DNA of 64,000 nucleotides, taken from contig JBIOJK010000002.1 in the NCBI GenBank assembly GCA_044450765.1, positions 4,281 through 68,280 on the forward strand, in the 5' to 3' direction. The stretch comes from Myxococcota bacterium. Its GTDB lineage: Bacteria > Myxococcota_A > UBA9160 > SZUA-336. The notes below the pieces were generated by a model that saw only the letters and a list, made by a program, of their open reading frames with translations, did not search any database and was not told the DNA's origin. Positions 1,544 to 57,155 of the stretch are shown in pieces; the first letter of the stretch is position 1; each line of letters starts with the position of its first letter. Position numbers and translations under genes: made by a program.

Positions 1544-3121
1544 ATGACGAGCATCGACCCGGCGGCGGCGGAGCGACTGCGCGCAAGTGGAATGTCGATC
1601 GCGCTGCACGCGCGCCAGGCGCCCGAGCGACTCGCGATCCTGTCGCCCTCGGGGAACTTGACTTACGCGGAGCTGAACGCGGGCGCAAATCGGCTGGCGC
1701 GCGCGCTGCGGGCGCGCGGCCTGCAGCGCGGTGACTCGGTCGCGCTCTTCTGCTCGAACCGGCCCGAGTTCGCGATCGCGTACGCGGCGGTGCTGCGCAG
1801 CGGGCTGCGACTCACTCCGCTGAACTGGCATCTGCAGACCGACGAGGCGATCTACGTGCTCGAGAACTGCGAGGCGCGCGCCTTTCTCGCCGACGCGCGC
1901 TTCGCGGGAGTCGCGGCCGAGGCGGCCGCCGCTTGTCCGAAGGCGTCGGTGCGGCTCGCGATCGGTCGCGCGATCCCCGGTTTCGAGCCGTTCGAGGCGG
2001 CGCTCTCGGGTGAGTCCGCCGAGGATCTCGCCGATCCGGTGCTCGGCGGGTCGATGCTCTACACCTCGGGCACGACGGGGCGCCCGAAGGGGGTACACCG
2101 AAAGGAGACGCCCGCGCCGACCGGCGTGGCGCGACTCACGGCGCAGGCCTGCGCGTATCGGCCCGAGACCGACCGCTCGCTCTGCACCGGGCCGCTGTAT
2201 CACGCCGCTCCGCTCGCGTTCAATCTCGCGGGCCCGCTGGCCGCCGGGCTCGGCGTCGTGCTGATGGAGAAGTTCGACGCCGAGGACACGCTGCGCGCGA
2301 TCGAGCGCTCGCGCGCGACTCACACGCACATGGTCGCGACCATGTTCCACCGGCTGCTCGCGCTCCCGGACGACGTGAAGGCGAAGTACGACATCTCGTC
2401 GCTGCGCGTGATTCTGCACGGCGCCGCGCCGACGCCGCCGCACGTCAAGAAGGCGATGATGGACTGGCTCGGTCCGATCCTGCACGAGTACTACGCGGCG
2501 ACCGAGGGCGGCGGCACGTTCATCTTCGCCGACGAGTGGCTGCGCAAGCCGGGCAGCGTGGGCAAGCCTGCGGACTCGGGCACGCTCGAGATTCGCGACG
2601 ACGCGGGCGCGCCAGTCACGGCCGGCTCCGTCGGCACGGTCTGGTTCCACGCGCCGGCGCGCGGCCGCTTCGAGTACTGGAAGGACGCGGCGAAGACTTC
2701 GTCCTCGTACGACGGCGACTGGTTCACGATGCGCGACATGGGCTACCAGGACGAGGACGGGTACGTCTTTCTCACCGGGCGCACCGCGGAGCTGATCATC
2801 TCCGGCGGCGTGAACATCTACCCGGCGGAGATCGACGCGGTGCTGCTGATGCACCCCGCGGTGCAGGACGCCGCCGCGATCGGCGTGCCCAACGAGGAGT
2901 TCGGCGAAGAGGTGAAGGCGGTGGTCCAGCTCGCCGACGGCTTCGCTCCGAGCGAGTCACTCGCCCGCGAGCTGCTCGATCACTGCCGCGCGCGCCTCGC
3001 GCATTTCAAGTGCCCGCGCACGGTCGACTTCGACGCGGCTCTGCCGCGCAGCGACGCGGGCAAGGTGCAGCGCCGCGCGATCCGCGACCGCTATTGGCAA
3101 GCGCTCGGCCGACAGATCTGA
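1544..3121 (+). CDS. Acyl-CoA synthetase / AMP-dependent ligase (FadD-like)
   Basis: AMP-binding motif MLYTSGTTGRPKGV, GYQDEDGYVFLTGR, and C-terminal K of the ANL family. ATG at 1544 chosen because the longer ORF from 863 overlaps the PEP-CTERM gene. Confidence 0.9.
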   Translation: MTSIDPAAAERLRASGMSIALHARQAPERLAILSPSGNLTYAELNAGANRLARALRARGLQRGDSVALFCSNRPEFAIAYAAVLRSGLRLTPLNWHLQTDEAIYVLENCEARAFLADARFAGVAAEAAAACPKASVRLAIGRAIPGFEPFEAALSGESAEDLADPVLGGSMLYTSGTTGRPKGVHRKETPAPTGVARLTAQACAYRPETDRSLCTGPLYHAAPLAFNLAGPLAAGLGVVLMEKFDAEDTLRAIERSRATHTHMVATMFHRLLALPDDVKAKYDISSLRVILHGAAPTPPHVKKAMMDWLGPILHEYYAATEGGGTFIFADEWLRKPGSVGKPADSGTLEIRDDAGAPVTAGSVGTVWFHAPARGRFEYWKDAAKTSSSYDGDWFTMRDMGYQDEDGYVFLTGRTAELIISGGVNIYPAEIDAVLLMHPAVQDAAAIGVPNEEFGEEVKAVVQLADGFAPSESLARELLDHCRARLAHFKCPRTVDFDAALPRSDAGKVQRRAIRDRYWQALGRQI

Positions 3122-3128
3122 GACAGCG

Positions 3129-54869: not shown

Positions 54870-55783
54870 GCGTCGTCTCCCACGATGCGCACTTCCGTCT
54901 GCAGCTCGACCTGCGAGCGAGCGCGCACCGCCGCGCGCGCGCGCTCGATCAGCCGCAGCACGTCGGCGGCGCGCGCGCCGCCCGTGTTGACGATGAAGTT
55001 CGCGTGCAGCGGCGAGATCGTCGCGCCGCCCTCGCGCGCGCCCTTCAGCCCGGCGGCCTCGATCAGTCGCCCGGCGAAGTCACTCGGCGGATTCACGAAC
55101 ACCGAGCCGCAGGAGGGCTGGTCGACCGGCTGCGTCGCGCGCCGCTGGGCGAGCTGGCGCTTCTGCCGCTCGCGGATCGCGTCGGGGTCGTCCGCCGTGG
55201 TCGCGAAGGTCGCGGCCAACACGACGGCGCCCGCGGGCAGCTCCGTGCGCCGGTAGCCGAAGCGGAGCTCGGCGCGCGCGAGCGTGCGGGCTCGGCCGAG
55301 CGCGGGCTCGAACACCTCGACGGAGCCGACCAGATCCTTCATCTCGCGCTCGCGCGTCCCGGCGTTCATCGCGATCCAGCCTCCGACCGTCCCGGGGATC
55401 CCCACTGCGAACTCGAGCCCCGCGCGGCCCTGGTCCGCGGCGAAGCGGGTGACCTGCGAGTGACTCGCGCCGGCCTCTGCGCGCACACTGCCGTCCGCGC
55501 CGAGCGCCACGTCGCGCAGGCCCGCGAGCCGGACGACGACTCCGCGCACGCCGCCGTCGCGCACCAGCAGGTTGAACCCGCCGCCCAGCACCAAGAGCGG
55601 CAGCGCGCGCCCGCGGCAGAAGTCCGCCAGCCGCTCCAAGTCCGCGCGCGCGTCGGCGCGCACCAGCGCGTCGGCGGGTCCGCCGACGCGCAGCGAGGTC
55701 CAATCGGCGAGTGACTCGCCCAGCGCCACGCGGCCCGGGAGCAGTGCGAGAAGCTCGTCGGCGATCTGCGGGTCAATGCCCAG
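54866..55783 (-). CDS. murB: UDP-N-acetylenolpyruvoylglucosamine reductase
   Basis: TSLRVGGPAD, GGGFNLLV and FVNP motifs. Start unresolved: CTG 55783 (preceded by GGAGGGGG) or GTG 55729. No ATG in the relevant interval. Confidence 0.88.
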   Translation of the reverse strand: MGIDPQIADELLALLPGRVALGESLADWTSLRVGGPADALVRADARADLERLADFCRGRALPLLVLGGGFNLLVRDGGVRGVVVRLAGLRDVALGADGSVRAEAGASHSQVTRFAADQGRAGLEFAVGIPGTVGGWIAMNAGTREREMKDLVGSVEVFEPALGRARTLARAELRFGYRRTELPAGAVVLAATFATTADDPDAIRERQKRQLAQRRATQPVDQPSCGSVFVNPPSDFAGRLIEAAGLKGAREGGATISPLHANFIVNTGGARAADVLRLIERARAAVRARSQVELQTEVRIVGDDA

Positions 55784-57155
55784 GGCCCCCTCCGTCCGGC
55801 GCCAGAAACTCCCCCGCCAGCCGGCCGATGTCTCCGGCGCCCATGAAGAACACGAGATCTCCCGGGCGCGCGAGCTCGCGCAGGCGCGGCACGATCGCGG
55901 ACTTCTCCGGCACGAACTCGACTGCGCGGTGGCCGCAGGCTCGCACCGCCTCGGCGAGTGACTCGGCCGAGACGCCCGGGATCTTGTCCTCGCCCGCGGC
56001 GTAGATCTCGGTGAGCACGAGCACGTCGGCGTCGTGAAAGGCGCGCGCGAGCTCATCGAAGACGTCGCGCGTGCGCGTGTAGCGGTGCGGCTGATAGGCG
56101 ACGACGATGCGCCGGCCGAGGCCCTCGCGCGCCGCCGCGAGCGCCGCGCGCACCTTGGCGGGGTGGTGCGAGTAGTCGTCGATCACGGTGATCCCGTCGC
56201 GCTCGCCGCGGATCTCGAAGCGGCGCTCGACGCCGCGGAACTCGGCGAGCGCCTCCGCGATGCGCGGTGCCGGCACGTCGAACTCGAGCCCGACCGCGAG
56301 CGCAGCCAGCGCGTTCTGCACGTTGTGCCGGCCGGGCACGCGCAGCGAGAATGCGCCCAGAGACTTGTTCTTGGCGCGCACCGCGAAGCGCATGCCGAGG
56401 CCCGCCGCTTCGACGCGTTCGGCGGCGACGTCGGCTTGCGGCGAGAGCCCGTAGGTCCAGATCCGCCGAGTGACTTGCGGCAGCAGCGTCTGCACGTGCG
56501 GATCGTCGATGCAGAGCACCGCTGCGCCGTAGAAGGGCACGCGATTCGCGAACTCGACGAAGGCGGCGTGGAGCGCCTCGAAGCTGCCGTAGTGATCGAG
56601 GTGGTCCCGGTCGATGTTCGTGATCACGACTACGGTCGGCACCAGGCGCAGGAACGAGCCGTCGCTCTCGTCCGCCTCCGCGACCAGTAGCTCGCCCGCG
56701 CCCAGCCGCGAGTTCGCGCCCAGACTGATCACGCGCCCGCCGACGATCGTGGTCGGGTCGAGGCCGCCGGCGGCGAGCACCTCGGCGGTCATCGATGTGG
56801 TCGTGGTCTTGCCCGCGGAGCCGCCGATCGCGATCCCGAACTTCATGCGCATCAGCTCGGCGAGCATTTCGGCGCGCGCGATCACCGGGATGCCCGCCGC
56901 CTCGGCCGCGCGCAGCTCGGGATTCGAGCGAGACACCGCCGACGAGAACACCACTACGTCCGCGCCAGCGATCGCGCCCGCGTCGTGGCCGATCGAGATG
57001 CGGATGCCGAGCTCGCGCATGCGCCGGGTCGCGGCGCTCTCGCGCAGATCGGAGCCGGACACGGAGTAGCCCTGCACGTGCAGGATCTCGGCGATCCCCG
57101 ACATGCCGACGCCGCCGATGCCGACGAAGTGCACGCGCTGCACACGCCTTCTCAT
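55773..57155 (-). CDS. murC: UDP-N-acetylmuramate--L-alanine ligase
   Basis: VHFVGIGGVGMSGIAE and GSAGKTTTT. Confidence 0.96.
   Translation of the reverse strand: MRRRVQRVHFVGIGGVGMSGIAEILHVQGYSVSGSDLRESAATRRMRELGIRISIGHDAGAIAGADVVVFSSAVSRSNPELRAAEAAGIPVIARAEMLAELMRMKFGIAIGGSAGKTTTTSMTAEVLAAGGLDPTTIVGGRVISLGANSRLGAGELLVAEADESDGSFLRLVPTVVVITNIDRDHLDHYGSFEALHAAFVEFANRVPFYGAAVLCIDDPHVQTLLPQVTRRIWTYGLSPQADVAAERVEAAGLGMRFAVRAKNKSLGAFSLRVPGRHNVQNALAALAVGLEFDVPAPRIAEALAEFRGVERRFEIRGERDGITVIDDYSHHPAKVRAALAAAREGLGRRIVVAYQPHRYTRTRDVFDELARAFHDADVLVLTEIYAAGEDKIPGVSAESLAEAVRACGHRAVEFVPEKSAIVPRLRELARPGDLVFFMGAGDIGRLAGEFLAPDGGGPGH

Follow-up and report, generated by a model that had tools for sequence, protein, structure and literature searches.

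The palindromic DNA word GAGTSACTC (S being C or G), with its 11 bp form CGAGTSACTCG, occurs ~25 times more often than expected in the core genes of a few related Myxococcota, which form a small group of uncultured soil bacteria. Our analysis centres on a 64 kb stretch of contig JBIOJK010000002.1 (assembly GCA_044450765.1), the whole of which is referred to here as the window. Enrichment of the word is specific to one monophyletic group of uncultured Myxococcota, and the sister lineage lacks it. On our best reading, (C)GAGTSACTC(G) is a lineage-specific, genome-wide word of the class that contains the highly iterated palindrome HIP1 and the uptake signal sequences (USS).

The window has a GC content of 70.7% and is ~95% coding. 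Counting both forms, it contains 17 exact matches to GAGTSACTC. In 100 shuffles of the window that preserved dinucleotides, 0.76 matches were expected and the maximum was 3. Markov models of orders 0 to 3 predicted 0.32–0.75. Permuting synonymous codons within each gene, which keeps both the proteins and the codon usage of each gene, gave 0.87 (maximum of 5 in 1000 permutations). The expectation was 0.36 when codon order was shuffled. Even a deliberately over-conservative shuffle, with each third base kept with the next base, yielded 3.9 and never more than 9. The AGTSACT core is the top over-represented 7-mer of the window, with 38 sites compared to the 2.5–3.2 expected from Markov models and codon shuffles. 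On average, a 9-mer is thus met every 3.8 kb and a core site every 1.7 kb. An earlier note on this DNA had estimated a low chance expectation for the 9-mer. Values of 0.3–0.9, from composition, dinucleotide and synonymous-codon nulls, agree with that estimate, and neither codon-preserving shuffles nor Markov models reproduced the count. Sixteen of the 17 starts listed in the note are correct, whereas the copy placed at 45846 begins at 45847. The five extended palindromes of 13–15 bp that it described are all real, and the one-mismatch copies given as examples are present.

Each copy of the word contains one GANTC, as had also been noticed. However, GANTC is not enriched as such; GAGTC occurs 194 times in the window and 187–237 copies are expected. 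Since GANTC is not enriched, and is asymmetrically placed inside the palindrome, its presence is probably incidental. GTSAC occurs 151 times compared to an expected 114–127, and this excess is due to the motif copies themselves. Thus, neither short word is enriched alone, and a GANTC/CcrM or GTSAC (Tsp45I-type) target was rejected as the enriched unit. A restriction-modification target or CcrM site was also rejected, because the long word is over-represented rather than avoided and GAGTC is found at its expected count. When the literature was searched for the word, primers and unrelated matches were all that came up.

All 17 exact sites fall inside housekeeping genes, according to our own gene calls, and three reading frames are used. 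Eleven sites read GAG-TCA-CTC (Glu-Ser-Leu, hereafter ESL), five read xGA-GTS-ACT-C and one reads G-AGT-CAC-TC. The earlier note was right about both the intragenic location and this tally. It was also right that the codons beneath the sites are rare. Thus, TCA accounts for 4.8% of serine codons in the window but for 14 of 20 within ESL, and CTC follows 21 of the 48 TCA codons. Similarly, ACT accounts for 7.8% of threonine codons but for 24 of 78 after valine. Among 51,798 codons from outgroup Myxococcota, none of the 14 ESL tripeptides is encoded by GAG-TCA-CTC and GTS-ACT encodes only 8 of 230 Val-Thr pairs. TCA-CTC and GTS-ACT are therefore not generally preferred codon pairs.

We pooled 338 kb of clade DNA, comprising the window, three syntenic loci from metagenome-assembled genomes (MAGs) and 31 metagenome loci. 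Seed matches in the metagenome loci were masked, and the array-bearing loci L121, L132, L141 and L143 were left out. The pool contains 114 independent sites, with 53, 39 and 16 in frames 0, 1 and 2 respectively. Coding DNA carries 3.4 sites per 10 kb and intergenic DNA 2.8, which are equivalent densities. Outside frame 0, the centre base is balanced (C:G = 27:28), and orthologous sites switch their centre between C and G. In the window, 16 of the 17 sites have the GAGTCACTC form on the coding strand. This 16:1 excess arises because TGA is a stop codon, making GAG-TGA-CTC impossible in frame 0. Given the balanced centre, the similar intergenic and coding densities, and the use of three frames, the target is a double-stranded DNA site and not a peptide or an RNA. 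An RNA-level or sense-strand function was rejected on the same grounds. All 11 frame-0 sites of the window, and 83% of those in the pool, have C at position −1. This position is a free third codon base at which C is preferred; hence, the site is the 11-mer palindrome CGAGTSACTCG. The 11-mer folds at only −1.4 kcal/mol, which argues against a hairpin or cruciform role. The sites align to their orthologues without gaps and are not the footprints of mobile element insertion. Gapless alignment, weak folding and the intragenic location of all 17 sites also exclude repetitive extragenic palindromes (REP), bacterial interspersed mosaic elements (BIME) and miniature inverted-repeat transposable elements (MITE) as a class for the word.

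We retrieved 79 Myxococcota loci using the MMPL/RND-family transporter encoded in the window as the query; these loci were thus unselected for the motif. Enrichment was found in three of the 79, and these are the closest (L001, L002 and L003, with 87–93% protein identity). Conversely, L048, which is syntenic and as similar to the window as L001–L003 (82–83% DNA identity), has no AGTSACT in 23 kb. For the remaining 75 loci (~1.3 Mb), 17 have one or two AGTSACT, a background level, and the others have none. A neighbour-joining tree, built with the MMPL protein only, places L048 as sister to the motif clade (bootstrap 100/100) and L003 as basal within the clade. The number of core sites per 10 kb is 0 in L048, 1.7 in L003, 3.4 in L191, 4.2 in L002, 5.1 in L001 and 5.9 in the window.

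Metagenomes were scanned for two copies of the word 225–255 bp apart, and at least 120 loci were returned. At least 31 of the scanned loci, all of which exceed 64% GC, hold additional dispersed copies. At least six high-GC contigs (L106, L114, L142, L191, L197 and L218) are syntenic with the window, at 81–87% identity; L142 and L218 have no copies besides the two seeds. At least 15 loci belong to one sample, Ga0187894, in which they are spread over at least nine large contigs of up to 711 kb. Enrichment is ~30-fold in these and other clade loci. In Ga0187894, AGTSACT occurs once per 760 bp; for the wider family (AGTSACT, ACTCACT and AGACACT) the figure is one per 350 bp, and gaps never exceed 2.2 kb. 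The metagenome loci were chosen on the motif, and their local densities may be biased upward despite masking of the seeds; the window, L001–L003 and L048 were not chosen in this way. Overall, density rises from 0 to 1.7, 6 and then 13 core sites per 10 kb among species that are ~15–18% divergent. Enrichment thus extends beyond the window to related genomes. Three scans of viral contigs for phages with the motif, of limited sensitivity, gave chance-level or tandem-repeat matches and no high-GC contig with dispersed enrichment.

Comparison of orthologous positions reveals how the sites arose. For the 18 window core sites that could be aligned, none is present in L048 (6.2 expected from phase-matched control 7-mers) and two are present in L003 (6.6 expected). 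Hence, the window sites are derived. The ancestral states at these positions are varied and include GAGCGACTC, GAGTCGCTC, GGGTCACCC, GCGTGACGC and GAGCGCGTC. Sites were gained by C>T, G>A, C>A and G>T, all of which lead to one word and oppose strong third-position GC pressure. In seven of eight motif-dense relatives, 57–100% of the A/T third codon bases in motif sites are kept, compared to 19–40% of the other A/T third bases of those genes (Fisher p between 1e-4 and 0.045, although the relatives share window sites and the comparisons are not independent). The eighth, L142, has five such positions only and showed no difference. The A/T third bases of the motif are kept in 12% of cases in L003 and in 0 of 26 cases in L048. 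The rare A/T third bases of the motif are therefore preferentially kept among those relatives that have the motif.

The word has also altered the proteome. Codons beneath sites found only in the window differ in their encoded amino acid in 24–29% of cases, compared to a background of 14–15%. Changes towards the motif include EPL, EVL and DAL to ESL. In the window, ESL is found 20 times with 7.0 expected (2.9-fold), and in Ga0187894 it is found 58 times with 13.6 expected (4.3-fold). For the outgroups (51,798 codons), the values are 14 and 14.9 (0.94-fold). GAG-TCA-CTC was counted 11 times in the window, 41 times in Ga0187894 and never in the outgroups; the TCA share of serine codons is 4.8%, 11% and 1.0% respectively. 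The excess of ESL is a consequence of the DNA word and not its cause. Taken together, these data show a directional, DNA-level fixation bias towards a symmetric 11 bp site, which began on one branch after the split from the sister lineage. They show that this bias can outweigh codon preference and, in part, amino acid constraint. They also show that sites, once formed, retain A/T third codon bases that are otherwise disfavoured.

The longest stretch of the window free of AGTSACT spans 46200–54664 (8.5 kb) and contains the MMPL transporter gene, a hydrolase gene, ftsZ and ftsA. The G+C content at third codon positions is 0.94 for the MMPL transporter gene, the highest among called open reading frames (ORFs). 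Genes with strong codon bias or under high constraint thus seem to resist the word.

Sequences one mismatch away from the word are also enriched, by 4–18-fold, in the window and in Ga0187894. The strongest are GACTCACTC and GAGACACTC. The exceptions are changes from A/T to G/C at positions 4 and 6, which are neutral. We sought a depleted one-mismatch neighbour in the window and in Ga0187894 and found none, the lowest value being 0.8-fold. Readout of a pure strong/weak pattern (GA-SWSWS-TC, W being A or T) was rejected; only single swaps with one intact GAGTG/CACTC half are enriched, and double swaps are not. A separate excess was seen in the Ga0187894 loci (L102, L104, L108, L122, L124, L208 and others). 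Here, GAGATAC/GTATCTC occurs 50 times with 3.7 expected, AGATACT 22 times with 1.1 expected and GAGATACTC 12 times with 0.46 expected. This may be a further tolerated variant, with the centre T-A-T, or a second word.

To our knowledge, hyper-abundant short DNA words are rare and the recognised classes are Chi, uptake sequences and HIP1. In the DNA uptake sequence (DUS) system, the reader is the minor pilin ComP; we know of no receptor identified for USS. HIP1 (GCGATCGC) is a short palindrome, enriched 15–300-fold, that occurs in coding DNA, in all frames, and in non-coding DNA. Its sites are conserved above neutral expectation, it has an enriched one-mismatch halo, and it takes lineage-specific forms (PMC5861425, PMC4390886). 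The Myxococcota word resembles HIP1 in its >10-fold palindrome excess, its use of all frames and non-coding DNA, its variant halo, its conservation and its shaping of codon choice. There are also differences. The word here is CGAGTSACTCG and the host belongs to the Myxococcota, so this is not HIP1 proper. It has an odd length and a degenerate central base, it contains A/T in a genome of 70% GC, with each copy costing rare codons, and its spread is narrower and apparently recent, with a motif-free sister lineage. HIP1 has cognate methyltransferases (for CGATCG and GATC), whereas none was identified here among the 59 window genes and 353 clade ORFs. HIP1 has long-range periodicity of 10–90 kb; within the 64 kb of contiguous DNA analysed here, local spacing is Poisson-like.

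USS inflate the tripeptides that they encode and lie at poorly conserved residues (PMC2817400), and uptake sequences form family- or genus-specific dialects (PMC3630211). Like the USS of Pasteurellaceae and the DUS of Neisseriaceae, the Myxococcota word is in the 9–12 bp range, occurs about once per 1–4 kb, is found in both orientations and is mostly intragenic. It too is a clade-restricted dialect with a near-cognate halo. The inflation of ESL, and the position of sites over poorly conserved residues, match the behaviour of USS. Unlike USS and DUS, which are asymmetric, the word is a palindrome with a degenerate centre, and it lacks AT-rich flanking tracts. HIP1 appears to boost natural transformation in a way that depends on methylation (bioRxiv 10.1101/2024.09.10.611283; 10.64898/2026.06.24.733823). 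Given this effect, the HIP1 and uptake sequence classes appear to be converging. Chi, the FtsK-orienting polar sequences (KOPS) and the architecture imparting sequences (AIMS) are also over-represented short oligomers in core DNA. However, they are asymmetric and replication-skewed, whereas the word is symmetric, with a balanced centre, and its orientation is set by the stop codon constraint.

The earlier note had proposed selection on the DNA word itself, by analogy with HIP1. Shuffles, codon pairs, intergenic density, centre flips and enrichment in related genomes all support this view. Tentatively, we favour a tag that marks the cell's own DNA in DNA exchange. The word would promote preferential uptake of, or recombination with, DNA of the same species, possibly depending on methylation. 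Its symmetry, degenerate centre and graded near-cognate halo point to a homodimeric, sequence-specific reader, which would be encoded elsewhere in the genome; a methyltransferase or a DNA-binding receptor are both possible. Graded enrichment of near-cognate sequences would then reflect a landscape of binding affinity. Sites could have accumulated by selection, by molecular drive, or by both. A bolder proposal is that genome tagging of the HIP1/USS kind originated independently, and recently, outside cyanobacteria, Pasteurellaceae and Neisseriaceae, with a newly acquired or specialised symmetric reader writing the 11 bp palindrome. This is possible but rather unlikely on present analysis.

Several observations weigh against the DNA exchange tag. 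Spacing of the sites is near Poisson (coefficient of variation 0.93–1.2) and gives no support to a design with one tag per fragment. Even or periodic spacing was not seen in the window, the sole long contiguous stretch available for this analysis; pairs less than 60 bp apart are slightly under-represented. Conservation of whole 7-mers is modest, at ~33 compared to 24 expected from phase-matched controls, in comparisons that are not independent. The search for a reader protein was negative, both in the 59 genes of the window and, using methyltransferase signatures, in the 353 clade ORFs. We know of no uptake sequence that is palindromic. Finally, selection and neutral drive are inseparable from sequence alone.

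In the strongest rival explanation, which we nevertheless consider unlikely, the word is a neutral by-product of clade-specific biased repair or mutation that resolves mismatches towards the word, and has no function. Candidate activities are a methyltransferase-coupled mismatch repair ratchet, as suggested by Elhai for HIP1, or a Vsr-like very-short-patch system. Passages of PMC5861425 that cite PMC4390886 describe such a ratchet as a proposal for HIP1. Neutral drive would fit enrichment that has its start on one branch and increases step by step within the clade, with near-Poisson spacing and with individual sites that turn over, none being common to the sister lineage. The most codon-biased genes (for the MMPL transporter, ftsZ and ftsA) lack sites, as a weak drive opposed by selection predicts. 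However, at least four substitution types create sites, rather than one mismatch class, and the changes oppose strong third-position GC pressure. A precursor that is being converted should be depleted, yet each one-mismatch neighbour is enriched 4–18-fold or neutral. The multiple substitution routes and the absence of a depleted precursor weaken the case for a repair ratchet, and very-short-patch-like conversion was rejected on the latter ground in both the window and Ga0187894. Retention of A/T third bases is also far above background, although a drive persisting in both lineages could mimic this.

Quite unlikely is an explanation in which the sites are bound by an abundant nucleoid-associated or chromosome-organising protein, comparable to SlmA, Noc or MatP, or to the part in chromosome architecture suggested for HIP1. 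The sites would then be under selection for the architecture of the chromosome or for nucleoid occlusion. Dimeric helix-turn-helix proteins typically bind palindromes with a degenerate centre, and a role in nucleoid structure has been proposed for HIP1 (PMC5861425). The half-sites, GAGT and ACTC, are identical to those of the Escherichia coli SlmA site, GTGAGTACTCAC, and SlmA sites are likewise palindromic, intragenic and dispersed (PMC3020112). Moreover, the same palindrome occurs in phased 21 bp tandem arrays, resembling protein-binding platforms, in other high-GC soil contigs. Conversely, the density of the word implies thousands of sites per genome rather than the tens known for SlmA, Noc and MatP, and the extra central base pair puts the half-site spacing 1 bp off the SlmA site; on both counts the word departs from this class. 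There is no regional bias or periodicity at the scale of the window, and no cognate protein was identified among the window genes and clade ORFs. An essential organiser is also unlikely to arise, and to spread its sites, in so narrow a group. The SlmA resemblance is a lead only. The window does encode a TetR-family regulator (38240–38881, minus strand), the family to which SlmA belongs, and this gene holds the exact site at 38798. The motif-free sister L048 has this gene too, which makes it an unlikely driver.

A coding-level artefact, be it a favoured peptide (ESL or x-Val-Thr), a favoured codon pair or chance base composition, is refuted; 11 of the 17 sites do encode ESL and 16 share one form on the coding strand, but shuffles that preserve proteins and codon usage yield 0.87 copies rather than 17, three frames and intergenic DNA are used at equal density, the strand bias is gone outside the frame in which TGA is forbidden, and outgroups of the same GC content encode ESL 14 times, without over-representation and never as GAG-TCA-CTC.

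The individual sites are listed in Table 1.

Table 1. Copies of the word, its core and its co-enriched variants in the window, and 21 bp arrays in other contigs. Positions are those of the window unless a locus is named.
Feature	Position	Strand	Context
Exact site; extended palindrome GCGAGTCACTCGC (2952–2964)	2954..2962		AMP-binding enzyme gene, GAG TCA CTC (ESL)
Exact site	8575..8583		sucD-like gene, GGA GTC ACT C (G-V-T)
Exact site	9600..9608		PfkB kinase gene, ESL frame
Exact site	14394..14402		pyruvate phosphate dikinase gene, ESL frame
Exact site; extended palindrome CCGAGTCACTCGG (27354–27366)	27356..27364		cyclase/AAA ATPase gene, ESL frame
Exact site	28154..28162		same cyclase/AAA ATPase gene as 27356 site, ESL frame
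Exact site	34515..34523		RecQ-like helicase gene (minus strand), GGA GTC ACT C
Exact site	37223..37231		AurF-like gene (minus strand), ESL; L048 orthologue GAGCGCGTC (DAL)
Exact site	38798..38806		TetR-family gene (minus strand), ESL; L048 orthologue GAGCGACTC
Exact site	39778..39786		MoxR/VWA gene, CGA GTC ACT C
Exact site; extended palindrome TCGAGTCACTCGA (39991–40003)	39993..40001		ESL frame; GAGTCGCTC in L003 and L048
Exact site	44547..44555		Mo-hydroxylase large-subunit gene; kept in L001, L002 and L003 (centre G in L003); GGGTCACCC in L048
Exact site	45847..45855		CoxG-like gene, GGA GTG ACT C; sole exact site with G centre on coding strand
Exact site	54663..54671		ftsQ (minus strand), ESL frame
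Exact site; extended palindrome GCGAGTGACTCGC (55456–55468)	55458..55466		murB (minus strand), G AGT CAC TC
Exact site; 15 bp palindrome GGCGAGTGACTCGCC (55706–55720)	55709..55717		murB, ESL; kept in L002 and L003
Exact site	55956..55964		murC (minus strand), ESL frame
Core-only AGTSACT (AAGTCACTC)	5784..5790		
Core-only AGTSACT	6277..6283		
Core-only AGTSACT (AAGTCACTC)	7273..7279		
Core-only AGTSACT	7337..7343		
Core-only AGTSACT (GAGTCACTA)	10600..10606		
Core-only AGTSACT	11740..11746		
Core-only AGTSACT (GAGTCACTT)	18511..18517		
Core-only AGTSACT	19479..19485		
Core-only AGTSACT	20678..20684		
Core-only AGTSACT (GAGTCACTG)	26934..26940		
Core-only AGTSACT (GAGTCACTG)	28836..28842		
Core-only AGTSACT	35540..35546		
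Core-only AGTSACT	40775..40781		
Core-only AGTSACT (GAGTCACTA)	42005..42011		
Core-only AGTSACT	42398..42404		also in L001; AGCGACT in L003 and L048
Core-only AGTSACT	46200..46206		
Core-only AGTSACT (AAGTCACTC)	55078..55084		
Core-only AGTSACT	56469..56475		also in L001 and L002, centre flipped there
Core-only AGTSACT	57887..57893		
Core-only AGTSACT	58037..58043		also in L001, centre flipped there
Core-only AGTSACT	59186..59192		also in L001
Co-enriched variant GACTCACTC	1809..1817	+	
Co-enriched variant GACTCACTC	17577..17585	+	
Co-enriched variant GACTCACTC	25957..25965	+	
Co-enriched variant GACTCACTC	29210..29218	+	
Co-enriched variant GACTCACTC	28480..28488	−	
Co-enriched variant GACTCACTC	38570..38578	−	
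Co-enriched variant GACTCACTC	50624..50632	−	
Co-enriched variant GACTCACTC	58398..58406	−	
Co-enriched variant GAGACACTC	9309..9317	+	
Co-enriched variant GAGACACTC	11039..11047	+	intergenic
Co-enriched variant GAGACACTC	41877..41885	+	
Co-enriched variant GAGACACTC	63023..63031	+	
Co-enriched variant GAGACACTC	21629..21637	−	
Co-enriched variant GAGACACTC	35574..35582	−	
Co-enriched variant GAGACACTC	43055..43063	−	
Co-enriched variant GAGACACTC	62050..62058	−	
21 bp array	L141 1983–2250		
21 bp array	L132 8446–8800		
21 bp array	L121 2440–2740		
21 bp arrays	L143 700–810 and 4810–5110		

Genes in the window were called with a codon-score model, and 53 of the 59 called genes are backed by Pfam. 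They have core housekeeping functions and include icd, mdh, sucCD, recO, ppdK, frdABCD, feoAB and a gene for a RecQ-like helicase. Also present are a molybdenum hydroxylase cluster, ndk, the MMPL transporter gene, and a division and cell wall cluster in the order ftsZ, ftsA, ftsQ, murB, murC, murG, ftsW, murD, mraY, murF, murE. The closest public genomes to the window are uncultured Myxococcota MAGs. On Pfam-based annotation, none of the 59 genes encodes a methyltransferase, a nuclease or endonuclease, or a mobile element, and a methyltransferase signature scan of 353 ORFs from clade loci gave no match. The ORF at 47345–50434 (listed as 47216–50434; 1030–1072 aa) matches the MMPL/RND family in Pfam, and this protein was used to retrieve related loci and to build the tree. 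The match rules out carB, which the ORF resembles in length. An exact look-up of the 1072 aa protein found no record.

The 21 bp arrays are intergenic tandem arrays found in four high-GC soil contigs, none of which shows the motif enriched in dispersed form. The unit is CCCCGAGTSACTCGGG plus a spacer such as TAGAT or TACAT, and contains the same palindrome. The array of L141 has at least 13 units. That of L143 is apparently split by an insert of ~4 kb, with one ORF resembling a ribbon-helix-helix protein and another resembling a transposase or integrase. The arrays look like protein-binding platforms or REP/BIME-like elements, as GTAG adjoins the palindrome. Genes beside the arrays (for a membrane protein, an SMC N-terminal fragment, an M20 peptidase, TPR proteins and transglutaminase-like proteins) were uninformative. 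Their presence in other soil bacteria hints at a wider, undescribed family of DNA-binding proteins.

Pattern searches were contaminated by long, degenerate satellite arrays of the GAGTC pentamer (GAGTCGAGTCACTC...), in which GAGTCACTC occurs dozens of times per kb. These were found in contigs of 40–48% GC (L198, L220, L206, L207, L209 and others, including JAAUYG01... and Ga0105054/55). The satellites are probably eukaryotic, and they are unrelated to the Myxococcota motif.

A further repeat, GC-rich and ~65 nt long (GAGGGCCGCCCCGAGC...GCAAGCGGCGGAGCCGCGCGCAGTGAGGCGCAGCCG), lies at 46588–46653 of the window, in the intergenic DNA between a MobA-like gene and ndk. It recurs in intergenic DNA of relatives, twice in L001 and also in L106, L108, L125 and L183. 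The repeat folds strongly, at −47 kcal/mol over 90 nt, and comparison with Rfam families and tRNA gave no match. Possible identities are a small dispersed REP- or MITE-like element and an unannotated RNA.

The Myxococcota word adds a case in a new phylum, and one apparently caught in the act, since density rises stepwise among close species and is zero in the sister lineage. The cost in rare codons, and the amino acid changes, reveal the strength of the pressure. The contrast with the sister lineage, for which long-read MAGs exist, makes the driver gene findable by phyletic comparison and by methylome analysis of existing MAGs, a goal not reached in 30 years of work on HIP1. Methyltransferases, repair enzymes and uptake receptors are all candidates for the driver, whose identity could tell functional tags from the products of molecular drive. 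The word is also a sharp compositional marker for binning the clade, and would be relevant to DNA delivery if a member were cultured.

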